From UHGV virus genome UHGV-2091730: 12,210 nt of DNA, one strand, 5' to 3'. Each line of letters begins with the position of its first letter. The stretch's first letter is position 1. This DNA is from a virus. Below, in pieces: positions 1 to 12,210 of the stretch. Position numbers and translations under genes: made by a program. The notes beneath the pieces were generated by a model. The model did no database searches. It was not told where the DNA came from and saw only the letters and a program-made list of their open reading frames with translations.

Positions 1-378
1 TTATTTCGAACAATCAGCATCCATCTCCAATCGGAGATCCAACACCATCAGCATACCCTCCACTACGCCCTCAGCTTTCTGAAGCATCCTGCCAACCCAA
101 CAATCAGATCGCCCATGCTTACGTGCAAGCGCCATAAAAGTCATGCCGCCGACATAATAGTCCACCAATAAATCATGCAAATCGCTGTTGTTCTTTTTCA
201 GACGGGCCATGCACCCGCAAATGATCATCGCGTCATCGTCACAACATTGTGGGCGAGATTTTACTTTTGAAGGAATTAATCCCTTAAAACCGGCGGCAAT
301 GGACGACCAGGTCACATCTTCATGATTATTAGCCGCCCACGCTCCCCAACGCTCAAGAACCATCTGAATATCACGCAT
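1..378 (-). CDS. Q: Late antiterminator Q, phage-82/DLP12 QuuD type
   Basis: Translation [24 protein letters not shown]... recognised as QuuD-like Q. ORF track starts at a TTG at 393; the ATG at 376-378 has a GGAG 8 nt upstream and is preferred. Stop TAA at 1-3. Confidence 0.8.
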
Positions 379-463
379 CAACTTACTCCACAAAACTCAG
401 ACCAGAACGCCAATTACAAGCAAAAATCAACAAAACAGTATTAGTTGATTGTTATCTCTGACT

Positions 464-586
464 TCATACTCCTGCTCCTGTCAGTGTTTTGGCGTAATTC
501 TTCAGTATTCGGTAATCGGTCAAAACAGAACCGGGGAAACGATATAAGCGCAGACGCCCCCAGCGGTGGCGAAGAAGTTCTGCCAT
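464..586 (-). CDS. ylcG: Small protein, YlcG-like (40 aa, MAELLRHRWGRLRLYRFPGSVLTDYRILKNYAKTLTGAGV)
   Basis: Hand-translated ORF between rusA and Q, where DLP12 carries ylcG. No clear Shine-Dalgarno; an in-frame TTG at 599-601 would give 45 aa. Confidence 0.35.
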   Translation of the reverse strand: MAELLRHRWGRLRLYRFPGSVLTDYRILKNYAKTLTGAGV

Positions 587-600
587 ATTAAACTCAAACA

Positions 601-963
601 TCATTCATTCCCCATTTCGGTGATGGTCAGTTCCAGCCTCCCACCTTTGGTAACAGGCATCTTCACAACGCGGTAATCAACGACCTGAGCATCATCCAGC
701 CAGAAACCTGCTTTAGTGAGTGCGTCAAAAGCGGCTTTTTGCAGATTATCCAGGTCACGGCGACGGCGATCCGGCATGTGGCACTCAATGCGGATTTTCA
801 CAGGCATAGCCAGGCCGATATCCAGCATTGCGTTTTTAATGATTCGGGCGACATTATCGCGGTATGCCTGCCCTTCTGCGCTGATGTGCGTGCGCCCTCG
901 ATTATGGCGGTAGTAGCGGTTATTGCTCGGCGGCCAGGGTAATGTGATGTGGTAAGTATTCAC
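601..963 (-). CDS. rusA: RusA Holliday-junction resolvase
   Basis: 120-aa translation [26 protein letters not shown]... is near-identical to E. coli RusA as recalled. GTG start overlaps the upstream stop (GTGA). Confidence 0.9.
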
Positions 964-1250
964 GCCTTAATTACCCCCTCTTTCAGCCAGATAACCTGCG
1001 TTCTCGCCATACCTTCCAGCGCGCATTCTTTTGCATATCCAGCGTCAACAAAATGCGTGCGGCGGTCGATTTCGTCGTGGCAGGCAGAACATGCAATGGT
1101 GGCAATCAGGTCTGGCGGTTTCGTACCGGTGCCGCACAATCCAGTCAGCCGGATATGTGCCAGTACAGACGTTTCAGGGTTGCCATTACATACGCCAGGG
1201 ATTCTTACCTGGCATTCCCGACCACGCGCTGCTTTTCTCAAATCAGCCAT
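960..1250 (-). CDS. ybcO: YbcO-like (DUF1364) putative Cys-rich nuclease
   Basis: Translation [34 protein letters not shown]... with several Cys/His. Start ATG at 1248-1250 has GGAGG 4 nt upstream; the track start at 1289 is likely too long. Position between ninE and rusA matches DLP12 order. Confidence 0.7.
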
Positions 1251-1413
1251 GACTCCTCCTTGCTGCCAGTCGCAACCATTTTTTATCAACCAGGCTGGCG
1301 GTATATCCGAGCAGTGTTGGTATTTCGGATGGCTTCAGCTCAGGTTTACGCTTACGACGATTTGGTACTCTGTAGATGTGTCCGTTCATGACACGAATAA
1401 GCGGTGTAGCCAT
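1243..1413 (-). CDS. ninE: NinE family protein (56 aa)
   Basis: [53 protein letters not shown] resembles the NinE basic motif. ATG at 1411-1413 has GGAGG 4 nt upstream and overlaps the upstream stop (TAATG). Confidence 0.7.
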   Translation of the reverse strand: MATPLIRVMNGHIYRVPNRRKRKPELKPSEIPTLLGYTASLVDKKWLRLAARRSHG

Positions 1414-1868
1414 TACGCCTCCTGCTTGTCGCGCAGCAGCTGAAACTCGCAGCTCTGTGGAATAGTCAGGTGGCAACCAATATTCATCGCCCAGGCTTCA
1501 ACCTTACACAGGAAGACATACATCTCTCCGGTATCAAGATCGGAGGTATGGCGTAACGACTGGATAGTGGTGATATCACCGGTTACGACATCAACCAGGT
1601 CTTTGGTTTCATAACCGAGATATGTGTGTTTGAGAGCATCTTTTACCCAAGCTGGAGTGGCGAACGTTTTACCCTTGCTGATGAGGTATTCACTGATTTC
1701 GCTGTACCACATGTGGCTGAGTGCATTCTGGGAAAGACTGCGTCTCTCGCGCCACGGTTTAAGCACCATGCGAAAGCATTTGCCGTCCTCCAGATAAGGT
1801 TGGATCTGCCGACCGATAGCGGTGAAGTTACCGCGATGCAGTTTGATGCCATCTTGTGGGAAGTTCAC
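1413..1868 (-). CDS. ybcN: NinB/YbcN family protein (151 aa)
   Basis: 151 aa with an S-L-S-Q-N...W motif like lambda NinB (SLDQNRKLW). GTG start with GGAGG upstream. Length and position match DLP12 YbcN as recalled. Confidence 0.7.
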
Positions 1869-1987
1869 GCTTCACCTCCGCAGAGATCAAACGCTGGATG
1901 CAAGATATCGCAGGTGCATTTCTGCATCTGTGAAGGGAGAAGAGAGTTTGGATTGTATGTGCGCATAAACGTCCCCGTTTAGCGCAG

Positions 1988-2020
1988 AAGTCACCGGAGG
2001 AGTTCAAACTCCGGTGACTT
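1988..2020. other. Perfect 12-bp inverted repeat (AAGTCACCGGAG / CTCCGGTGACTT) with 9-nt loop; stem-loop at the nin-block/cargo boundary
   Basis: Read directly from the sequence. No U-tract on either side, so not a canonical intrinsic terminator. Confidence 0.6.
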
Positions 2021-2089
2021 AATTATGACAAGTTGATTATTGAAAATCAAAAGTCATTTAAACAATAATGATACCCAGCAAGAGATTTC

Positions 2090-2491
2090 TTATTTTAACT
2101 CATAGATCAGACAGTCAACGATTTCTAAACCATTTACCATAGAATTAGAAACGCGAACTTTACCATCGTTGACTCTAGCAAATCCTTTTAACATTTTATA
2201 AATAAAAGCTGAATCCCCCTTAGCCTCAATTGCTTCTAATGGTATCGGCTTATACTTTTTTGATATGCTATTTCTATTTATCTCACTGATTTTTCTATAT
2301 ATTTCTGCCGGTCCACGTTCTGAGAAGTCACTGATAACTAAAATATATCTCCAAGATAGATCTGGGTAATAAAACCACATTGCAGCATCAATGGTTAAAT
2401 TCTGTAACTTGAGTTTTTTTAATAAAAATTGACCTGAGAATTCCATATCTTTTGTCAACTCTCTGCCGATTACCAGTGTGCTTTTACCCAT
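2090..2491 (-). CDS. Hypothetical protein (133 aa), downstream partner of the HEPN-like gene
   Basis: ATG at 2489-2491 with GGAG 8 nt upstream. Overlaps the upstream gene by 22 nt. About 30-35 percent GC by hand count. No family recognised. Confidence 0.6.
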   Translation of the reverse strand: MGKSTLVIGRELTKDMEFSGQFLLKKLKLQNLTIDAAMWFYYPDLSWRYILVISDFSERGPAEIYRKISEINRNSISKKYKPIPLEAIEAKGDSAFIYKMLKGFARVNDGKVRVSNSMVNGLEIVDCLIYELK

Positions 2492-2886
2492 TTCAAAACT
2501 CCAGAATTTTGGTCACCTACAGCATCAAACAATTGTTCGGCCATAGCTTTACTTATGTTATTGTCGTATCTAAATTGCTCGCTCCAGTCTTTAACGACCG
2601 ACCAGTTAATCTCCAACGAAACATCATTTTTTGCGTCAGCAATCAAAATTTGATGTAAGTTGGCAATTTTGAGAAGTTGCGACAAATCATGAGTATATGA
2701 ATCATTTACGACTTTTTTGTTTGGAAACTCATGTTGTAAAAATGACTTGGCAATACAGGCCTTCAATGCACATTCAACTGCATACCCACAAAGATAATAT
2801 GCACCATGAAAAAAGCCATGATCAAGCAAGCATTTGGCCTCATTAAGCCTAGTGTCAGATAATGCTTCAAGGTCGTTTTTATTCAT
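2470..2886 (-). CDS. HEPN-like domain protein (138 aa), putative toxin/effector of a two-gene module
   Basis: Motif order matches the classical HEPN pattern: GAYYLCGYAVECALKA, then THDL, then FRYD. Weak RBS. AT-rich. The domain call is pattern recognition only. Confidence 0.5.
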   Translation of the reverse strand: MNKNDLEALSDTRLNEAKCLLDHGFFHGAYYLCGYAVECALKACIAKSFLQHEFPNKKVVNDSYTHDLSQLLKIANLHQILIADAKNDVSLEINWSVVKDWSEQFRYDNNISKAMAEQLFDAVGDQNSGVLKWVKAHW

Positions 2887-3304
2887 ACAATTATAACTTG
2901 AATTATCCTAATTTTTATGATTATACCCTTATCAGGTATGATGTAGGAACTGAAAACAATATTGGATATCATTTTCGATATTTCTCTGCAAATTCCAGCC
3001 CACAGGATCTCGGTGTACAATCTGTCGCTGATCGCGCAAATTTAGGGTCAATCACTTCATTTTTTGCATCAAACCCTCACTAACATCGAACGATTATAGT
3101 ACAAGTAGTGTTCTTGACTTCTCATTAAACCGTCAGCATTCAATTAATTACAAAATACTAGCGGCATTTCTCTCCCGCAACTTTATTACAGCCGTTCAGA
3201 ACGTAAATGCGTCAATACTCGAATCAACTGATCATCCTGCCACGACTGAAATCTCAAATAGGCCGTTTCTCAAGTAAGAGATTTTGAATGCATTATTGGC
3301 TACT

Positions 3305-3333
3305 GAAATAAAAAACCCAGCGCCAACTGGGTT
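3305..3333 (-). terminator. Rho-independent terminator for the signal-peptide protein gene
   Basis: On the minus strand, a 7-bp stem (AACCCAG / CTGGGTT) with 6-nt loop followed by TTTTTATTT, about 20 nt past the stop at 3351. Confidence 0.6.
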
Positions 3334-3350
3334 CATATGAAATTTTTTTG

Positions 3351-3845
3351 TCATTTCCAATTGCAAGACTGTGAAATTTTTTCCACAACCTTATCAATCT
3401 CAGACAAGTCAAACTCAACTACTTGCATAGTTGATCCATAAGGTTCAAACCCAAAAATAGCTTTTTTATGCTTAGCCAAGGTCTTTATAAATTGTATTGG
3501 TTGTGGAGCAAATGCAGAATCACCGCCTTCCCCACCACCCCAAACACTCTTGACCGGCTTTCCGCCATCTAACCGCACTGTAATTCTTGGGTTGTCCGAA
3601 CCCATATAATCATTGAATGATAAATAGGCATCTGTTTTGTTATCACTACAACGCAACACCAGTGAAGTTGCACGATCAGTACCTGCTTTGTTATATGAAT
3701 CTGGTGATAAATTAAGAGCCACAAAGTCAGTCTGGTCAGTCATTTTATTTATCTCAGACTTTGTTATCCACGGCCCTAACTTCTCTACACCAGCATTTGC
3801 TGTAAACGAGGCACTTATGACAAAGGCTAAAATAAATTTTCTCAT
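3351..3845 (-). CDS. Secreted/periplasmic protein of unknown function (164 aa) with N-terminal signal peptide
   Basis: N-terminus MRKFILAFVISASFTANA is a Sec signal peptide with no lipobox. AGGAGA 7 nt upstream of the ATG. Own terminator. Two Cys in the mature part. AT-rich. Confidence 0.7.
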   Translation of the reverse strand: MRKFILAFVISASFTANAGVEKLGPWITKSEINKMTDQTDFVALNLSPDSYNKAGTDRATSLVLRCSDNKTDAYLSFNDYMGSDNPRITVRLDGGKPVKSVWGGGEGGDSAFAPQPIQFIKTLAKHKKAIFGFEPYGSTMQVVEFDLSEIDKVVEKISQSCNWK

Positions 3846-3991
3846 AACCCTATCTCCTTGGCTTCAAAGAACTAAATATTATCAAGTCTCTTGCCACTAG
3901 AAAACCCACTTTATTTCCAAACTCTGATGGCATTCCTGAAAATCCGCTTCATACTCACTTGCCCCGCCCTATCATCCTGAGTAGCTAACCG

Positions 3992-4165
3992 TTAAACAAA
4001 CGTTCGCCAGACCTTACCATCAATGACCAGGATTCCTGCACGCGCCATTTTAGCTGCTGCCTGATTTATGCAGGTTACTGTCACACCTGTTGCCGCAGCA
4101 ACGTCCTGCGCACAGAAGCTCTTATGCGTCCCCAGGTAATAAATAATTGCCTCTTTGCCCGTCAT
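3992..4165 (-). CDS. ren: Ren-like protein, apparently short (57 aa) compared with lambda Ren
   Basis: Hand translation MTGKEAIIYYLGTHKSFCAQDVAAATGVTVTCINQAAAKMARAGILVIDGKVWRTFV matches the lambda Ren N-terminus as recalled. ATG overlaps the P stop (ATGA). The ORF ends where the AT-rich cargo begins. Confidence 0.6.
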   Translation of the reverse strand: MTGKEAIIYYLGTHKSFCAQDVAAATGVTVTCINQAAAKMARAGILVIDGKVWRTFV

Positions 4166-4863
4166 ACACTTGCTCCTTTCAGCCCAAACTTAGCTTTGAT
4201 TTCTGCGATCTTCGCCAGAGCCTGTGCACGATTTAGAGGTCTACCGCCCATGACAGGAAGCTGTTTTACTGGTTCAGGTATCGCCTCACCACGGTTAATT
4301 CGCGCGGTCATACAGGACAGTTCATCGGCAGCCTTGCGCCGTAATTCCGCATCAGTAAGCGCATTGGCCCGCATGTTCTGGTACAGGTTGGTAACCAGCC
4401 AGTAATGCGCGTTCGATTTCCACGGATAAGACTCTGCATCCGGATACAGGCCACGCTTCCGGCAATACTCGTAAACCATATCAACCAGCTCGCTGACGTT
4501 TGGCAGCCCGGCGTTAACGGATGCTTCTTCCCGGCACCAGGCGACAAACTGCCCGGGTGATGGCAGGAATGGTCGATTCTGCCGACGGGCTACGCGCATT
4601 CCTGCGTTAACCTGTTCCATTGTGGTGATCCCGTTTTCCCGGAAAGCCAGAACCCACTGGCGGCGGATTTCGTTCAGTTCATTCTGGTCACGGTTAGCCA
4701 GGCTCGCCGGGAAAGTTGCCAGTAACTGGCTGAACACACCGTTGATGATCTGCGCTACCTGCTGTACCTGCGGCTTTTCGTCGTACTGTTCCGGCATGTT
4801 GTTGGCGATCCGACGCATCTGCTCACGGTCAAAGTTAACCATCTGTGCGGCGATGTTTTTCAT
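4162..4863 (-). CDS. P: Replication protein P (DnaB helicase loader), lambda type
   Basis: 233-aa translation MKNIAAQMVNFDREQMRRIANNMPEQYDEK... recognised as lambda P. ATG overlaps the O stop (ATGA). Confidence 0.92.
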   Translation of the reverse strand: MKNIAAQMVNFDREQMRRIANNMPEQYDEKPQVQQVAQIINGVFSQLLATFPASLANRDQNELNEIRRQWVLAFRENGITTMEQVNAGMRVARRQNRPFLPSPGQFVAWCREEASVNAGLPNVSELVDMVYEYCRKRGLYPDAESYPWKSNAHYWLVTNLYQNMRANALTDAELRRKAADELSCMTARINRGEAIPEPVKQLPVMGGRPLNRAQALAKIAEIKAKFGLKGASV

Positions 4864-5354
4864 AAATCCATCCCGTAAATCCAGTCAGTGTTTGTCAGGT
4901 CGAGTTTTGGTTTTCTGGCTGTCACGCCAGCCTGTTGCTTGTTACGGTTGATTTCGAGCTGGGTCCACTTGTCGCGGAGTTTAGCCGGACTCAGCACGTT
5001 ACCGGACCAGAAGTTGTCCTGGCATGCCCAGCGGAACAGCACGCACATGTCGCGGTGGTTACGTCCATCACGTTCACGCATCAGGCGGATATCGTTAGCC
5101 CACCCTGCAAAATTCGGTTTTCTGGCTGATGGCGCGATGGTCTTCACCATGTCAAACATCCACTCTGCGGCGGTCAGGTCTTCTGCTGTCCCCCACTTGC
5201 TGCCGCTCTGAATTGCAGCATCCGATTTCATCACAGGAAGATCGTTTTCTGGCTGGTCAGAGGATTCGTCAGAATTCTCGGACGAAAAAGGTTTTATATT
5301 GTCTTTTGTTAGTTTGTCTTTTGTGTTTACCTGATTCGGGTACCTGGACTGCAT
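4860..5354 (-). pseudogene. O: Replication initiator O, C-terminal fragment only; N-terminal domain and ori iterons absent
   Basis: From LTKDNIKPFSSENSDESSDQPEND onward it matches the lambda O C-terminal half. The first ATG has a TAG two codons upstream and no RBS. The AT-rich ori-proximal segment and GAATTC (5272-5277) are kept, but no iterons. Confidence 0.8.
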
Positions 5355-5542
5355 CAGCTAATTTACGCGGACGACTTTATCTGCACCGCGGCATCGAGCG
5401 CACTTATACCCGTGATTTGCTCGTGGAAGTTTTTCTCGACGGACGCGGTAACGGCCTGAATCACTAATCCCCTTTCCTGTTTTCCTATTCAGCCTGGCAT
5501 TTCGCGGGCGATATTTTCACAGCCATTTTCAGGAGTTCAGCC

Positions 5543-5839
5543 ATGAACGCTTATTACATTCAGGATCGTCTTGAGGCTCAGAGCTGGGCGCGTCACTACC
5601 AGCAGATCGCCCATGAAGAGAAAGAGGCAGAACTGGCAGACGACATGGAAAAAGGCCTGCCCCAGCACCTGTTTGAATCACTCTGTATCGATCATTTGCA
5701 ACGCTGCGGGGCCAGCAAAAAAGCCATTACCCGTGCGTTTGATGACGATGTTGAGTTTCAGGAGCGCATGGCAGAACACATCCGGTACATGGTTGAAACC
5801 ATTGCTCACCACCAGGTTGATATTGATTCAGAGGTATAA
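5543..5839 (+). CDS. gam: Gam (RecBCD inhibitor), short 98-aa form
   Basis: [54 protein letters not shown]... recognised as lambda Gam. An in-frame TAA at 5465-5467 rules out the long form. Confidence 0.92.
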
Positions 5840-5844
5840 AACGG

Positions 5845-6630
5845 ATGAGTACAGCACTCGCAACGCTGGCAGGGAAGCTGGCTGAACGTGTCGGCATGGA
5901 TTCTGTCGACCCACAGGAACTGATCACCACTCTTCGCCAGACGGCATTTAAAGGTGATGCCAGCGATGCGCAGTTCATCGCATTGTTGATCGTCGCCAAC
6001 CAGTACGGCCTTAATCCGTGGACGAAAGAAATTTACGCCTTCCCTGATAAGCAGAACGGCATCGTTCCGGTGGTGGGCGTTGATGGCTGGTCCCGCATCA
6101 TCAACGAAAACCAGCAGTTTGACGGCATGGACTTTGAACAGGACAACGAATCCTGCACATGCCGGATTTACCGCAAAGACCGCAATCATCCGATCTGCGT
6201 TACCGAATGGATGGATGAATGCCGCCGCGAACCATTCAAAACCCGCGAAGGCAGAGAAATCACGGGGCCGTGGCAGTCGCATCCCAAACGGATGTTACGG
6301 CATAAAGCCATGATTCAGTGTGCCCGTCTGGCCTTCGGATTTGCTGGTATCTATGACAAGGATGAAGCCGAGCGCATTGTCGAAAATACCGCATACACTG
6401 CAGAACGTCAGCCGGAACGCGACATCACTCCGGTTAACGATGAAACCATGCAGGAGATTAACACTCTGCTGATCGCCCTGGATAAAACATGGGATGACGA
6501 CTTATTGCCGCTCTGTTCCCAGGTATTTCGCCGCGACATTCGCGCATCGTCAGAACTGACACAGGCCGAAGCAGTGAAAGCTCTTGGATTCCTGAAACAG
6601 AAAGCCACTGAGCAGAAGGTGGCAGCATGA
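5845..6630 (+). CDS. bet: Bet (Red-beta single-strand annealing protein)
   Basis: 261-aa translation [59 protein letters not shown]... recognised as lambda Bet. Confidence 0.95.
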
Positions 6631-7307
6631 CACCGGACATTATCCTGCAGCGTACCGGGATCGACGTGAGAGCTGTCGAACAAGGGGATGATGCATGGCA
6701 CAAATTACGGCTCGGCGTCATCACCGCTTCAGAAGTTCACAACGTGATAGCAAAGCCCCGCTCAGGAAAGAAGTGGCCTGACATGAAAATGTCCTACTTC
6801 CACACCCTGCTGGCTGAGGTTTGCACCGGTGTGGCTCCGGAAGTTAATGCTAAGGCGCTGGCATGGGGAAAACAGTACGAGAACGACGCCAGAACCCTGT
6901 TTGAGTTCACTTCCGGCGTGAATGTTATTGAATCCCCGATCATCTATCGCGACGAAAGTATGCGTACCGCCTGCTCTCCCGATGGTTTATGCAGTGACGG
7001 CAATGGCCTTGAGCTGAAATGCCCGTTTACCTCCCGGGATTTCATGAAGTTCCGGCTCGGTGGTTTCGAGGCCATAAAGTCGGCTTACATGGCCCAGGTG
7101 CAGTACAGCATGTGGGTGACACGAAAAGATGCCTGGTACTTTGCCAACTATGACCCGCGGATGAAGCGTGAAGGACTGCATTATGTCGTGGTTGAGCGGG
7201 ATGAAAAGTACATGGCGAGTTTTGACGAGATGGTGCCGGAGTTCATCGAAAAAATGGACGAGGCACTGGCTGAAATTGGTTTTGTATTTGGGGAGCAATG
7301 GCGATGA
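6627..7307 (+). CDS. exo: Exo (lambda 5'-3' exonuclease, Red-alpha)
   Basis: 226-aa translation [50 protein letters not shown]... recognised as lambda Exo. Overlaps the bet stop by 4 nt. Confidence 0.95.
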
Positions 7308-7486
7308 AGCATCCTCACGATAATATCCGGGTAGGCGCGATCACTTTCGTCTACTCCGTTACAAAGCGAGGCTGGGTATTTCCCGGCCTTTCTGTTACCC
7401 GAAATCCCCTGAAAGCACAGCGGCTGGCTGAGGAGATAAATAATAAACGGGGAGCTGTATGCACAAAGCATCTCCTGTTGAGTTAA
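7304..7486 (+). CDS. Small b-region protein (60 aa), lambda orf60a-like
   Basis: ATG at 7304 overlaps the exo stop (ATGA) with GGGAG 8 nt upstream. Same position as lambda orf60a. The track start at 7298 is less likely. Confidence 0.55.
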
Positions 7487-7650
7487 GAACGAGCATTGAG
7501 ATGGCACATAGCCTCGCTCAAATTGGAGTCAGGTTTGTGCCAATACCAGTAGAAACAGACGAAGAATTTCATACGTTAGCCGCATCCCTTTCACAAAAAC
7601 TGGAAATGATGGTGGCGAAAGCAGAAGCAGATGAGAGAGACCAGGTATGA
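7459..7650 (+). CDS. Small b-region protein (63 aa), lambda orf63-like
   Basis: ATG with GGGGAG 4 nt upstream. Length and position match lambda orf63. Confidence 0.55.
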   Translation: MHKASPVELRTSIEMAHSLAQIGVRFVPIPVETDEEFHTLAASLSQKLEMMVAKAEADERDQV

Positions 7651-7730
7651 CAACCACTGAATGCATTTTTCTGGCAGCGGGCTTCATATTCTGTGTGCTT
7701 ATGCTTGCCGACATGGGACTTGTTCAATGA
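7647..7730 (+). CDS. Possible 27-aa hydrophobic peptide (MTTTECIFLAAGFIFCVLMLADMGLVQ)
   Basis: Hand-translated. ATG overlaps the upstream stop and its stop overlaps the next ATG (ATGA at 7727-7730). Single predicted TM helix. A weak call. Confidence 0.3.
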   Translation: MTTTECIFLAAGFIFCVLMLADMGLVQ

Positions 7731-7942
7731 CACCTCAGCAGGAAAACGCCCTTCGCAGCATTGCCCGTCAGGCTAATTCTGAAATCAAAAAAGCCAGACA
7801 GCAGTTTCCGGATAAAAACGTCGATGACATTTGCCGTAGCGTACTAAAGAAGCACCGCGAAACGGTAACGCTGATGGGATTCACACCGACTCATTTAAGC
7901 CTGGCGATCGGCATGTTGAACGGCGTCTTTAAGGAACGGTGA
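7727..7942 (+). CDS. Small b-region protein (71 aa), lambda orf61-like
   Basis: MTPQQENALRSIARQANSEIKKARQQFPDKNVDDICRSVLKKHRETVTLMGFTPTHLSLAIGMLNGVFKER. The track begins at an ATG at 7661 with no RBS; the 7727 start is coupled to the upstream peptide. Confidence 0.5.
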   Translation: MTPQQENALRSIARQANSEIKKARQQFPDKNVDDICRSVLKKHRETVTLMGFTPTHLSLAIGMLNGVFKER

Positions 7943-7963
7943 ACATGAAAAGCAAAATCATCA

Positions 7964-7990
7964 GGGAGCTACAGGCTCCTTTTTTATTAT
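7964..7990 (+). terminator. Probable rho-independent terminator
   Basis: Stem GGAGC / GCTCC (7965-7969, 7975-7979) followed by TTTTTTATTATT. Confidence 0.45.
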
Positions 7991-8040
7991 TCGCATTCAC
8001 CCTCAAGCGTATTAACCAACAATTCAGGGATTAATGAAAG

Positions 8041-8262
8041 ATGGCAGACATAATTGATTCAGCATCAGAAATTGAAGAATTACAGCGCAACACAGCAATA
8101 AAAATGCGCCGCCTGAACCACCAGGCTATATCTGCCACTCATTGTTGTGAGTGTGGCGATCCGATAGATGAACGAAGACGCCTGGCCGTTCAGGGTTGTC
8201 GGACTTGTGCAAGTTGCCAGGAGGATCTGGAACTTATCAGTAAACAGAGAGGTTCGAAGTGA
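8041..8262 (+). CDS. TraR/DksA-family C4 zinc-finger protein (73 aa)
   Basis: CxxC-x14-CxxC (CCEC ... CRTC) after an acidic/helical N-terminus (MADIIDSASEIEELQRNTAIKMRRLNHQ), typical of phage TraR-like proteins. Confidence 0.7.
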   Translation: MADIIDSASEIEELQRNTAIKMRRLNHQAISATHCCECGDPIDERRRLAVQGCRTCASCQEDLELISKQRGSK

Positions 8263-8414
8263 GCGAAATTAACTAGAAGCCAAAGATAAAATCATCGCTG
8301 AGCAGGAGAAAATCGCTAACGGAGAAAAGACAGTAAGTCAGTATATGAAAACCGCATGATATCATCAGATAAAAATCGATCGTAAAGCGAAATATTCATA
8401 CCAGAATAAACGAG

Positions 8415-8438
8415 TCGAGGTAAATTATATTACCTCGA
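8415..8438 (-). terminator. Possible terminator hairpin downstream of the membrane-protein gene
   Basis: 8-bp inverted repeat TCGAGGTA / TACCTCGA with 8-nt loop, followed on the minus strand by a modestly T-rich stretch. Weak. Confidence 0.3.
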
Positions 8439-8472
8439 TAAATTAACTAAAACTTGCCCGCTATATACTATC

Positions 8473-9075
8473 TCATTCAGTATCATCACGCGCGGTCTGT
8501 GCATATGTCACTACCGCACCTAATGTATTAATTTTCTTTTCAACATAGATAATATTATCGTACTCATAATTGCCATACGGATAGCAAATGCGAATATTCT
8601 CATGTAGATCGGGGTCATCCACCTCAGCTCCAGAACAACTTTTTGAACTACCGGAAGTATACCGATACGGTGCAACATAAGACGATGTCTCTCCAGGCAA
8701 AAAATAAGTTAGTGTTGTAAGGGGTATAATCAGAAAAAATCCAGAAAATATGCATATCCCTGCATAAACCTTAAGGTATGCTGACAGACTCTTCCAGCCG
8801 CTTTGTTTTACTATCCCCTTCTTAACCCAAAACAGAGATAACAGAAAAGCTATTCCCATGCTAAACAGAATGTAATAGTGGGATATACTCTGATTAAGAA
8901 ACGTGACCCTGTAGATATCTGCCCGCCACCAGAAGAAAAGGAAAATAAAGATCAGCCCTGAAACTGTCATGCAAATCAAATAAGGATACGAATCTTTTTT
9001 CATGTTTAGCGCCCATAAAATTTTTCCTGACCCGGACAAATTTACCATCCATTTTTTGCGCAGAAAATAGCTCAT
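8473..9075 (-). CDS. Integral membrane protein of unknown function (200 aa; three predicted TM helices, about 60-aa soluble C-terminal tail)
   Basis: Long ORF on the strand opposite to all flanking phage genes. About 35 percent GC by hand count. Hydrophobic stretches LICMTVSGLIFIFLFFWW, YYILFSMGIAFLLSLFWV, VYAGICIFSGFFLIIPLTTLTYFL. Start uncertain: no strong RBS at any in-frame ATG. Confidence 0.6.
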   Translation of the reverse strand: MSYFLRKKWMVNLSGSGKILWALNMKKDSYPYLICMTVSGLIFIFLFFWWRADIYRVTFLNQSISHYYILFSMGIAFLLSLFWVKKGIVKQSGWKSLSAYLKVYAGICIFSGFFLIIPLTTLTYFLPGETSSYVAPYRYTSGSSKSCSGAEVDDPDLHENIRICYPYGNYEYDNIIYVEKKINTLGAVVTYAQTARDDTE

Positions 9076-9317
9076 TACTTACTGCACAATAATACACAAA
9101 ATTGCGTAAATTTTTTGCATGGATTTTAGCTCTTTCAGCCGACATTTAAGGGGTAAATAGCATTTCCTAAAAGCAACTGCACCAACCCAACAGAATGGGC
9201 TACCGCTTACGTTGAGAGCAAAAAAGTGTATAGCAGCAATGAACAGCATCCTCGCACTGACGAGGATTTCTTTTATCTGAACTCGCTACGGCGGGTTTTG
9301 TTTTATGGAGATGATAA

Positions 9318-9485
9318 ATGCACTTCCGAGTCACAGGTGAATGGAATGGAGAACCATTCAACAGAGTTATCGAAGCCGAGAACATCAGCGACTGCTATGA
9401 CCACTGGATGCTGTGGGCGCAGATAGCACATGCAGACGTAACCAATATTCGAATTGAAGAACTGAAAGAACACCAAGCCGCCTGA
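9318..9485 (+). CDS. 55-aa hypothetical protein (MHFRVTGEWNGEPFNRVIEAENISDCYDHWMLWAQIAHADVTNIRIEELKEHQAA), conserved lambda ORF just upstream of xis
   Basis: GGAG 7 nt upstream of the ATG. Stop lies inside the terminator loop. Same 39-nt spacing to xis as the equivalent lambda ORF, from memory. Confidence 0.6.
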   Translation: MHFRVTGEWNGEPFNRVIEAENISDCYDHWMLWAQIAHADVTNIRIEELKEHQAA

Positions 9486-9497
9486 TGGCGGTTTTTT
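9477..9497 (+). terminator. Rho-independent terminator between the 55-aa ORF and xis
   Basis: GCCGCC-TGAT-GGCGG hairpin followed by TTTTTTCTT. Confidence 0.6.
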
Positions 9498-9524
9498 CTT
9501 GCGTGTAATTGCGGAGACTTTGCG

Positions 9525-9743
9525 ATGTACTTGACACTTCAGGAGTGGAACGCACGCCAGCGACGCCCAAGAAGCCTTGAAACAGTTCGTCGATGGGTAC
9601 GCGAGTGCAGGATATTCCCACCTCCGGTTAAGGATGGAAGAGAGTATCTGTTCCACGAATCAGCGGTAAAGGTTGACTTAAATCGACCAGTAACAGGTAG
9701 CCTTTTGAAGAGGATCAGAAATGGGAAGAAGGCGAAGTCATGA
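9525..9743 (+). CDS. xis: Excisionase Xis
   Basis: 72-aa translation MYLTLQEWNARQRRPRSLETVRRWVRECRIFPPPVKDGREYLFHESAVKVDLNRPVTGSLLKRIRNGKKAKS recognised as lambda Xis. 23-nt overlap with int. Confidence 0.95.
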   Translation: MYLTLQEWNARQRRPRSLETVRRWVRECRIFPPPVKDGREYLFHESAVKVDLNRPVTGSLLKRIRNGKKAKS

Positions 9744-10791
9744 GCGCCGGGATTTACCCCCTAACCTTTATATAAGAAACAATGGATATTACTGCTACAG
9801 GGACCCAAGGACGGGTAAAGAGTTTGGATTAGGCAGAGACAGGCGAATCGCAATCACTGAAGCTATACAGGCCAACATTGAGTTATTTTCAGGACACAAA
9901 CACAAGCCTCTGACAGCGAGAATCAACAGTGATAATTCCGTTACGTTACATTCATGGCTTGATCGCTACGAAAAAATCCTGGCCAGCAGAGGAATCAAAC
10001 AGAAGACACTCATAAATTACATGAGCAAAATTAAAGCAATAAGGAGGGGTCTGCCTGATGCTCCACTTGAAGACATCACCACAAAAGAAATTGCGGCAAT
10101 GCTCAATGGATACATAAACGAGGGCAAGGCGGCGTCAGCCAAGTTAATCAGATCAACACTGAGCGATGCATTCCGAGAGGCAATAGCTGAAGGCCATATA
10201 ACAACAAACCCTGTCGCTGCCACTCGCGCAGCAAAATCAGAGGTAAGGAGATCAAGACTTACGGCTGACGAATACCTGAAAATTTATCAAGCAGCAGAAT
10301 CATCACCATGTTGGCTCAGACTTGCAATGGAACTGGCTGTTGTTACCGGGCAACGAGTTGGTGATTTATGCGAAATGAAGTGGTCTGATATCGTAGATGG
10401 ATATCTTTATGTCGAGCAAAGCAAAACAGGCGTAAAAATTGCCATCCCAACAGCATTGCATGTTGATGCTCTCGGAATATCAATGAAGGAAACACTTGAT
10501 AAATGCAAAGAGATTCTTGGCGGAGAAACCATAATTGCATCTACTCGTCGCGAACCGCTTTCATCCGGCACAGTATCAAGGTATTTTATGCGCGCACGAA
10601 AAGCATCAGGTCTTTCCTTCGAAGGGGATCCGCCTACCTTTCACGAGTTGCGCAGTTTGTCTGCAAGACTCTATGAGAAGCAGATAAGCGATAAGTTTGC
10701 TCAACATCTTCTCGGGCATAAGTCGGACACCATGGCATCACAGTATCGTGATGACAGAGGCAGGGAGTGGGACAAAATTGAAATCAAATAA
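9721..10791 (+). CDS. int: Integrase Int (tyrosine recombinase), lambda type
   Basis: 356-aa translation MGRRRSHERRDLPPNLYIRNNGYYCYRDPRTGKEFGLGRDRRIAITEAIQ... recognised as lambda Int. Confidence 0.97.
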   Translation: MGRRRSHERRDLPPNLYIRNNGYYCYRDPRTGKEFGLGRDRRIAITEAIQANIELFSGHKHKPLTARINSDNSVTLHSWLDRYEKILASRGIKQKTLINYMSKIKAIRRGLPDAPLEDITTKEIAAMLNGYINEGKAASAKLIRSTLSDAFREAIAEGHITTNPVAATRAAKSEVRRSRLTADEYLKIYQAAESSPCWLRLAMELAVVTGQRVGDLCEMKWSDIVDGYLYVEQSKTGVKIAIPTALHVDALGISMKETLDKCKEILGGETIIASTRREPLSSGTVSRYFMRARKASGLSFEGDPPTFHELRSLSARLYEKQISDKFAQHLLGHKSDTMASQYRDDRGREWDKIEIK

Positions 10792-10880
10792 TGATTTTAT
10801 TTTGACTGATAGTGACCTGTTCGTTGCAACAAATTGATAAGCAATGCTTTTTTTATAATGCCAACTTAGTATAAAAAAGC
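10792..10880. other. attL: phage P' arm (Int arm-type and IHF sites) plus 15-bp core TTAGTATAAAAAAGC at 10866-10880 (reverse complement of GCTTTTTTATACTAA)
   Basis: Core and adjacent P' arm (GGTCACTATCAGTCAAAATAAAATCA on the other strand) read directly. Lies between the int stop and host ybhC. Confidence 0.8.
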
Positions 10881-10926
10881 AGGCTTCAACGGATTCATTT
10901 TTCTATTTCATAGCCCGGAGCAACCT

Positions 10927-12210
10927 GTGAACACATTTTCAGTTTCCCGTCTGGCGCTGGCATTGGCTTTTGGCGTGACGCTGACCGCCTGTAGCTCAAC
11001 CCCGCCCGATCAACGTCCTTCTGATCAAACCGCGCCTGGTACCTCTTCTCGCCCGATTCTGTCGGCAAAAGAAGCGCAGAATTTCGATGCTCAACACTAT
11101 TTTGCATCCCTGACACCAGGTGCTGCAGCGTGGAATCCTTCCCCGATTACCCTGCCTGCGCAACCTGAATTTGTTGTCGGCCCGGCGGGCACTCAAGGTG
11201 TAACGCATACCACGATTCAGGCGGCGGTAGATGCGGCAATTATCAAGCGTACCAACAAGCGCCAGTATATTGCCGTGATGCCTGGTGAGTATCAGGGAAC
11301 GGTATATGTCCCTGCCGCTCCGGGTGGAATTACTCTGTACGGTACAGGTGAAAAACCGATTGATGTGAAGATTGGGCTTTCCCTTGATGGTGGCATGAGC
11401 CCTGCCGACTGGCGTCACGACGTCAACCCGCGCGGCAAATATATGCCAGGTAAACCAGCGTGGTATATGTACGATAGCTGCCAGAGCAAACGCAGCGACA
11501 GTATCGGTGTTCTCTGCTCTGCGGTCTTCTGGTCACAAAACAATGGCCTGCAACTGCAAAATCTGACCATCGAAAACACGCTGGGCGATAGCGTAGATGC
11601 AGGTAACCATCCGGCGGTGGCACTGCGTACTGATGGTGACCAGGTACAGATTAACAACGTTAACATTCTCGGTCGTCAGAACACCTTCTTTGTCACCAAC
11701 AGCGGTGTGCAGAACCGTCTGGAAACGAATCGTCAGCCGCGTACGCTGGTGACCAACAGCTACATTGAAGGGGATGTGGATATCGTTTCTGGTCGCGGCG
11801 CAGTGGTGTTCGATAACACCGAATTCCGCGTGGTGAACTCACGTACTCAGCAAGAAGCGTATGTGTTTGCACCGGCTACGCTGTCCAACATTTACTACGG
11901 TTTCCTCGCCGTAAACAGCCGTTTCAATGCTTTCGGTGATGGTGTGGCGCAACTGGGCCGCTCGCTGGATGTTGATGCCAATACCAACGGTCAGGTGGTG
12001 ATCCGTGATAGCGCCATCAACGAAGGTTTTAACACGGCTAAACCGTGGGCCGATGCGGTGATCTCTAATCGTCCGTTTGCGGGTAATACCGGCAGCGTAG
12101 ATGATAACGACGAAATACAGCGCAATCTGAATGACACTAACTACAACCGCATGTGGGAATACAATAACCGCGGCGTGGGTAGTAAAGTGGTTGCAGAGGC
12201 GAAGAAGTAA
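10927..12210 (+). CDS. ybhC: Host outer-membrane lipoprotein YbhC (pectinesterase-like / putative acyl-CoA thioesterase), 427 aa
   Basis: GTG start with GGAG 6 nt upstream. Signal peptide with lipobox LTAC. Sequence recognised as E. coli YbhC, which flanks the lambda attachment site. Confidence 0.85.
   Translation: MNTFSVSRLALALAFGVTLTACSSTPPDQRPSDQTAPGTSSRPILSAKEAQNFDAQHYFASLTPGAAAWNPSPITLPAQPEFVVGPAGTQGVTHTTIQAAVDAAIIKRTNKRQYIAVMPGEYQGTVYVPAAPGGITLYGTGEKPIDVKIGLSLDGGMSPADWRHDVNPRGKYMPGKPAWYMYDSCQSKRSDSIGVLCSAVFWSQNNGLQLQNLTIENTLGDSVDAGNHPAVALRTDGDQVQINNVNILGRQNTFFVTNSGVQNRLETNRQPRTLVTNSYIEGDVDIVSGRGAVVFDNTEFRVVNSRTQQEAYVFAPATLSNIYYGFLAVNSRFNAFGDGVAQLGRSLDVDANTNGQVVIRDSAINEGFNTAKPWADAVISNRPFAGNTGSVDDNDEIQRNLNDTNYNRMWEYNNRGVGSKVVAEAKK

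Follow-up and report, generated by a model that had tools for sequence, protein, structure and literature searches.

[quoted passage not shown] In Rac-type phages, YdaS is the equivalent of Cro and YdaT the equivalent of CII, and loss of the repressor from prophages with a YdaS/YdaT module is lethal (PMC5917428, PMC9986795). Firing of the lambda origin from a trapped prophage also kills the cell, and cells that survive have insertions or deletions in O or P (PMC3640518); the lambda Kil protein blocks FtsZ assembly (PMC3961180). Prophages are in general 'grounded' by deletion or IS insertion (PMC6379469), and the K-12 remnants DLP12 and Qin, like 'grounded' prophages, are locked-in lambdoid remnants that keep int and nin-region genes.

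The DNA described here (the window) is a stretch of 12,210 nucleotides from UHGV virus genome UHGV-2091730. We conclude, with a probability of roughly 0.88, that it is the early half of a lambdoid prophage at attB-lambda in which one internal deletion of 2,844 bp, running from the first iteron in O to codon 27/28 of kilR and joined through GGTA, has taken the whole switch. Undeleted relatives of this prophage resemble Rac in having a Cro-like YdaS, a CII-like YdaT and a divergent repressor (PMC5917428, PMC9986795), and in having, ahead of the recombination genes, a division inhibitor of the KilR family. Rac holds its repressor, the loss of which is lethal (PMC5917428), whereas in the window the switch itself is gone; the recombination genes also differ, being RecET in Rac and lambda Red in the window.

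Results

Gene content and integration site

The open reading frame map and sequence show a lambdoid early region laid out in two divergent arms. The order on the minus strand is Q (1-378), ylcG, rusA, ybcO, ninE, ybcN, three cargo genes (a 133-aa ORF, a HEPN protein and a VasI/TagO-like lipoprotein), a truncated ren, P and an O-derived fragment (O'). RefSeq annotation of E. coli strain 10, which carries a sister prophage, names ybcN, ninE, ybcO, rusA, ylcG and quuD, with counterparts at window 1-1868. On the plus strand, gam, bet, exo, small ea-region genes, xis and int are followed by an att core and the chromosomal gene ybhC. The late genes and attR lie outside the window, which covers the early half.

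The genes flanking the lesion are intact, as the preliminary description had reported for Red, Int/Xis and P: the ORFs are full and have domain matches. P (4162-4863, minus strand) encodes a replication protein of 233 aa, its start overlapping the O' stop codon, and PF06992 (Phage_lambda_P) matches the identical gene of the metagenome contig described below. At the level of genes, the lambda Red module is complete and in operon order on the plus strand: gam (5543-5839, 98 aa, PF06064 Gam), bet (5845-6630, 261 aa, RecT family, PF03837) and exo (6627-7307, 226 aa, YqaJ family, PF09588). Further along the same strand are xis (9525-9743, 72 aa), for which a sister gene of the same length at the same place is annotated as excisionase (PF07825 Exc), and int (9721-10791), encoding a lambda-type integrase of 356 aa with PF09003 (Arm-DNA-bind) and PF00589 (Phage_integrase). 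Between int and ybhC (Pectinesterase) lies an exact copy of the 15-bp lambda att core, GCTTTTTTATACTAA (attL; 10866-10880, minus strand), the one match in the window where 0.01 would be expected by chance. Since int and xis occur together with an exact att core and an adjoining ybhC, the element is a prophage at attB-lambda. In a whole-window megablast, the same position was filled in 361 complete E. coli genomes, the prophage always matching in separate pieces.

Several further features were observed outside the junction region. ren is cut to a 57-codon ORF (3992-4165, minus strand), a short form that occurs widely (735 index blocks) and that strain 10 has annotated as a pseudogene. At 2090-2886 (minus strand), the gene for the HEPN-domain protein (138 aa) overlaps that for the 133-aa protein (phrog_5760, unknown function; no Pfam match), and the two may be a defence or toxin-antitoxin-like pair. 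The VasI/TagO-like secreted protein (164 aa) is encoded at 3351-3845 (minus strand). A predicted membrane protein of 200 aa is encoded at 8473-9075 (minus strand), antisense to the early-left operon, between a TraR/DksA-like gene and xis; its C-terminal 88 aa alone match phrog_1416 (unknown function), and its gene is present in some sister prophages, with other cargo at that place in others.

Relatives and their immunity region

The references were two E. coli prophages at attB-lambda/ybhC, those of TUM9757 (NZ_CP128931.1) and strain 10 (NZ_CP048330.1). Both share with the window the site, int/xis, Red, P, the nin region and Q, at 98-99% identity on both sides of the junction, but they hold a 2,844-bp block that the window lacks, with the O N-terminus, iterons, ydaT, ydaS, the S24 repressor, the operators and the 5' end of kilR. 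The strain 10 prophage also has a full lambda-like late region. The best relative differs by arm, being strain 10 on the left and TUM9757 on the right, which is normal lambdoid mosaicism. Gam and Q are too widely common to single out a lineage, and show the mosaic context of the module.

The immunity region of these relatives is compact and Rac-like (YdaS/YdaT/S24 repressor), and has no N, cIII or rex. In the gene tables of about 20 related loci, every locus with the YdaS/YdaT module lacks an N-type gene (PF11438/PF25694) in the interval from repressor to kilR, whereas Cro/CII-type mosaics sharing the same Gam do carry one (PF11438 or PF25694). The preliminary description, which had set the locus against a canonical lambdoid genome, counted about 6 kb as missing, N included. 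The loss is less than half of that, and the 'missing' N was never there, because the gene tables of the YdaS/YdaT relatives have no such gene.

The intervals between repressor and kilR that have no N-type antiterminator gene include strain 10 7992-8586 and those in the tables of loci L005, L009, L011, L012, L014, L022, L024, L025 and L027. Cargo found between the two genes in these intact YdaS/YdaT-type phages is BamE-like, HipA_2/DUF3037 and DUF7946/7947.

The deletion junction and the missing block

gam begins 189 bp from a 164-codon O-derived ORF (4860-5354, minus strand), and an in-frame TAG (5360-5358) lies two codons upstream of the ATG of that ORF at 5354. These coordinates, the gap of about 190 bp and the upstream stop had been given correctly in the preliminary description, which proposed an alignment to define the junction. 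Three-way alignment with the prophage's own relatives, TUM9757 and strain 10, places a single clean junction at 5339-5342, where the O arm passes into the kil arm. Window 19-5342 is collinear with strain 10 501-5824 (98.7% identity, E = 0) and window 5339-12210 with TUM9757 9001-15871 (99.2% identity, E = 0); window 5339-8274 aligns to strain 10 8665-11600 (all by blastn). The two arms, 2,844 bp apart in the relatives, overlap in the window by the 4 bp GGTA, a microhomology present at both breakpoints in the relatives. Its copies in strain 10 lie in an iteron (5821-5824) and in codons 27/28 of kilR (8665-8668), and the missing block is strain 10 5825-8668, exactly 2,844 bp. The alignment shows no IS sequence or target duplication left at the junction, and no observation runs counter to this structure.

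The content of the lost block was read from the RefSeq annotation, Pfam matches and motif scans of the relatives. The block takes codons 1-179 of O, including the whole PF04492 Phage_rep_O domain (residues 51-145), together with four of the five origin iterons. With it go a gene of the YdaT family, placed where CII would be, and an HTH gene of YdaS/Cro-like type (Pfam YdaT_toxin and YdaS_toxin), the divergent repressor (HTH_3 and Peptidase_S24), and the first 26-27 codons of the gene for a 68-aa KilR-type cell-division inhibitor, with its start codon and ribosome-binding site. AACAAC/GTTGTT half-sites, likewise lost, form two clusters, the first lying between ydaS and repressor (strain 10 7198-7307) and the second about 300 bp upstream of kil (8255-8321); we read these clusters as candidate operators, putatively OR and OL with their promoters. 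No functional lambdoid immunity region of the repressor/Cro-like/CII-like type with OL and OR is left in the window, so the earlier proposal that the repressor and both operator/promoter regions had been deleted is borne out by alignment to intact sister prophages. No Rfam RNA family was found in the window or in the deleted block. Within strain 10, a perfect palindrome, ATGGTTGTTTTTAGTCAACAACCAT, lies between ydaS and the repressor (7236-7260) and is a candidate operator; the half-site cluster upstream of kilR is the second candidate.

Remnants flanking the junction

On the left of the junction is O' (4860-5342, minus strand), the C-terminal 160 codons (residues 180-339) of a lambda-O-type replication initiator of 339 aa. 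It differs from the strain 10 protein at one aa over the last 161 compared positions, stop included. It matches phrog_277 ('replication initiation O-like') only at profile positions 148-317 of 318, and has no Pfam match at all, not even to Phage_rep_O, which the full-length protein matches at residues 51-145. O is therefore truncated, as had been proposed, its DNA-binding half gone and codons 180-339 kept. The fragment had been said to start at 5354, and that is indeed the mechanical start of the ORF, but homology to O stops at 5342; the opening four codons (MQSR), with the ATG, are kil sequence read in antisense, and no Shine-Dalgarno sequence precedes them. For these reasons, the start of the 164-codon ORF is an accident of the join.

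Part of the origin survives. The AT-rich segment inside O (about 5286-5326), with two 15-nt direct repeats, TTATATTGTCTTTTG and TTAGTTTGTCTTTTG, is retained and is identical to strain 10 5775-5810. By motif and repeat scans, it is followed by a lone iteron, TTACCTGATTCGGGTA (5327-5342), the only one in the window of the five in strain 10 (5809-5919). The lambda origin has four iterons. The locus had been described as having lost ori, with no iterons; most of the origin is gone, but one iteron and the AT-rich segment remain. With one of five iterons and an O' that lacks residues 1-179, PF04492 included, a complete lambda-type origin is not present.

On the right of the junction, the roughly 110 bp that had been left unassigned (5355-5467) belong to the 3' end of a kilR-type gene. 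The last 41 codons (28-68) and TAA of this 68-aa KilR-type FtsZ-inhibitor gene occupy 5343-5467 (plus strand). The remnant, from the GGTA onwards, has one mismatch to strain 10 8665-8793 (128 of 129 nt identical) and matches phrog_294 ('Kil protein') at positions 40-80 of 83 (E 1.6e-18), so that no complete kil/KilR gene is present in the window. The full-length KilR of a relative matches phrog_294 at 1.3e-37, carries a PF27398 KilR tag and is named 'phage encoded cell division inhibitor protein' in RefSeq; against NF008465 it scores 63.1 bits, under the 92-bit cut-off. The local Pfam copy gave no KilR match, and the identity is taken from PHROGs and the precomputed PF27398 tags. The native kil-gam spacer with the gam Shine-Dalgarno sequence AGGAG follows (5468-5542, plus strand) and is the same as in the relatives.

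A 112-codon ORF (5129-5467, plus strand) spans the junction, an antisense-of-O frame fused in frame to the kil C-terminus. It has no Shine-Dalgarno sequence, the antisense frame is likewise open in strain 10 (5611-5937), and the fusion is probably a meaningless product of chance.

Recurrence of the junction

Over its full 12,210 bp, the window matches an 80-kb MEGAHIT contig from a human-gut metagenome (L003; ENA ERZ917730, run ERR1190583) at 100% identity. The same junction is present base for base in an independent assembly, the NCBI isolate assembly GCA_041328555.1 (L019), on a 4.77-Mb contig that differs from the window by one SNP in 5,174 bp, at window 4871 (GVDL instead of GMDL in the O' C-terminus). 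These carriers came to light through exact look-up of the junction-specific ORF and the neighbouring ren' ORF. The 164-aa junction product is on record in four contigs (JGI/IMG, Logan, ENA) and a variant differing by 1 aa in ten (NCBI, Logan, ENA), the longest of 4,777,627 bp. In a megablast of window 5250-5600, no match covered at least 80% of the query in any of 5,426 complete E. coli genomes or in 50,697 phage records. Among the thousands of matches, 5339-5600 was always Kil followed by Gam at 97-99.6%, and the left part was O elsewhere in the same prophages. An exact scan with 40 nt across the junction found it in none of the GTDB species-representative genomes and none of the JGI metagenome contigs. 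The deletion is real and inherited, but rare.

The metagenome contig ends past Q in an IS1 terminus (GGTAATGACTC...) at 13511-13633, 156 bp beyond window position 1, a place where relatives carry a lipocalin gene and late genes. Because the contig stops at this IS1 end, other defects are possible, and the late region of the prophage may be interrupted or lost.

Promoters

A crude consensus scan, which weak, sigma-S or read-through transcription could escape, found no sigma-70-like site on either strand at 4700-5900. Going upstream from gam on the plus strand, 1.5 kb pass without a candidate, and the nearest one, at 3948-3975, matches 9 of 12 positions. Across the window there are 15 such sites against 18.2 ± 4.5 in shuffled sequence, that is, no excess. 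A weak GATATT element read by eye at 5510-5515 (plus strand) was considered as a promoter and rejected, having a poor -35 and being present in intact relatives as well. Neither gam nor O'-P has a promoter-like site ahead of it, so the early genes are probably not expressed. What would transcribe the Red genes had been left as a question; because the scan shows no promoter-like site near gam, the answer is probably nothing specific, and at most read-through.

Discussion

Origin of the join

Misassembly had been named beforehand as one way in which the deletion could prove illusory; here it would mean that two prophage fragments were wrongly joined in a metagenome assembly. In its favour, the metagenome contig identical to the window was built from short reads and is itself broken at an IS1, and lambdoid prophages are rich in repeats. 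An artefact of this kind is nevertheless extremely improbable, because the identical junction is present in an isolate genome on a 4.77-Mb contig, four repositories together record the junction ORF in about 14 contigs, and an overlap of 4 bp is unable to cause a de Bruijn mis-join at k=127 (contig name k127_10098). Also raised beforehand was that the 190 bp between O' and gam might be a compact alternative immunity or control module that leaves the prophage regulated. The 112-codon ORF across the junction could be taken as a gene of such a module, but it is an antisense-of-O frame fused by chance to the kil frame, with no Shine-Dalgarno sequence. The remainder is accounted for as the kilR 3' end (128/129) and the native spacer, and 5343-5542 holds no HTH or repressor-like ORF, Pfam match, operator half-site cluster or Rfam family, which makes a substitute module next to impossible.

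How the two arms came together leaves somewhat more room for doubt. Exchange between two co-resident lambdoid prophages, exchange with an infecting phage, or a join through an IS1 intermediate could each be proposed in place of a simple intramolecular deletion, given that the left and right arms are closest to different relatives. IS1 is active in this module, in the origin of a related prophage 28 bp from the junction position and just past Q in the metagenome contig, and IS1 ends start with GGTAATG, whose first four bases are those of the microhomology. We nonetheless consider these routes unlikely. Single sister prophages carry both breakpoints, with order and orientation unchanged; their integration site, int and ybhC flank are collinear with those of the window; and 4 bp of identity is too short for homologous exchange. 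An IS-mediated origin was rejected because the junction carries no IS remnant. The preferred reading is that of a deletion within one prophage, and the join would have arisen by RecA-independent illegitimate recombination, through slippage or end-joining at the microhomology.

Consequences for the prophage

With the block went the repressor, the putative early promoters and operators, a candidate CII-like activator for the establishment and int promoters, the DNA-binding half of O and full-length Kil, and a single iteron remains. From the missing parts, we infer that the element is no longer inducible and no longer replicates from its own origin. The leftward (kil'-gam-bet-exo...xis-int) and rightward (O'-P-ren'-nin-Q) early operons would now be without promoters and largely silent. 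The loss of switch and origin seen by alignment, together with an allele that stands in an isolate chromosome and a gut metagenome one SNP apart, marks the element as a presumably defective ('grounded') prophage.

The deletion would be tolerated, and is plausibly favoured, because the repressor goes together with the hazards of derepression (the early promoters, Kil, YdaS/YdaT and origin firing), and what stays in the host would be a locked-in remnant that does no harm. Selection for the deletion is plausible as an argument from known lethality, not as a measurement. With one SNP in 5 kb between them, carriers are too uniform to reveal selection, and for the same reason the intact Red, Int/Xis and P say nothing about it.

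That the remnant has been domesticated, so that the host retains Red, Int/Xis and cargo and gains from their expression off a cryptic or read-through promoter, might be suggested by flanking genes that are all intact with native ribosome-binding sites, and by an allele that persists in several isolates and samples. This is very unlikely: no promoter-like plus-strand site lies within 1.5 kb upstream of gam, genes in carriers one SNP apart in 5 kb may be intact just because the deletion is recent, and the allele is in none of the 5,426 complete E. coli genomes. A selected 'disarming', in which Red, Int/Xis and the nin-region cargo would be held at low constitutive expression from a cryptic promoter or antisense read-through, is highly improbable; if true, it would give an E. 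coli lineage a built-in recombineering or hyper-recombination capacity with no lytic risk.

Other lesions in related prophages place the deletion in a wider pattern. One assembly (GCA_045042975.1) has a different deletion of about 2.56 kb, which joins bet to ydaS/cro at about 4047-4054 of the locus through the 2-bp microhomology TA, corresponding to strain 10 7110/9674. In a prophage at the same site in CP057167.1, an IS1 (about 5690-6457) has inserted into the AT-rich part of the origin within O and left a 9-bp target duplication, TTGTTAGTT, equal to window 5306-5314. P0009 is another O truncation near the same iteron. These independent lesions support ordinary decay focused on the switch and origin module. 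The deletion described here is routine prophage decay, an event of a familiar type in publicly available sequence.

The closest described parallels differ from the window in extent. DLP12 and Qin have lost far more, whereas the present prophage has one clean lesion in the window and an IS1 just past Q. The defective lambda prophages of the Hayes laboratory, in which O- or ori-inactivating insertions or deletions permit survival of derepression ('replicative killing'; PMC3640518), are alike in that O and ori are inactivated here by deletion. Unlike those survivors, the window holds a natural allele that is also without repressor, both early promoters and kil, and in which derepression would be impossible.

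Conclusions

Beyond annotation, the importance of the deletion is small. For annotation, both the 164-aa 'replication protein' and the stretch preceding gam count as gene fragments, the prophage is to be scored as defective, and the right comparison is with the phage's own Rac-like relatives, not with lambda. For lambdoid prophages, the locus is a base-exact example of locking-in, in which one microhomology deletion takes the repressor together with the functions that make its loss lethal.
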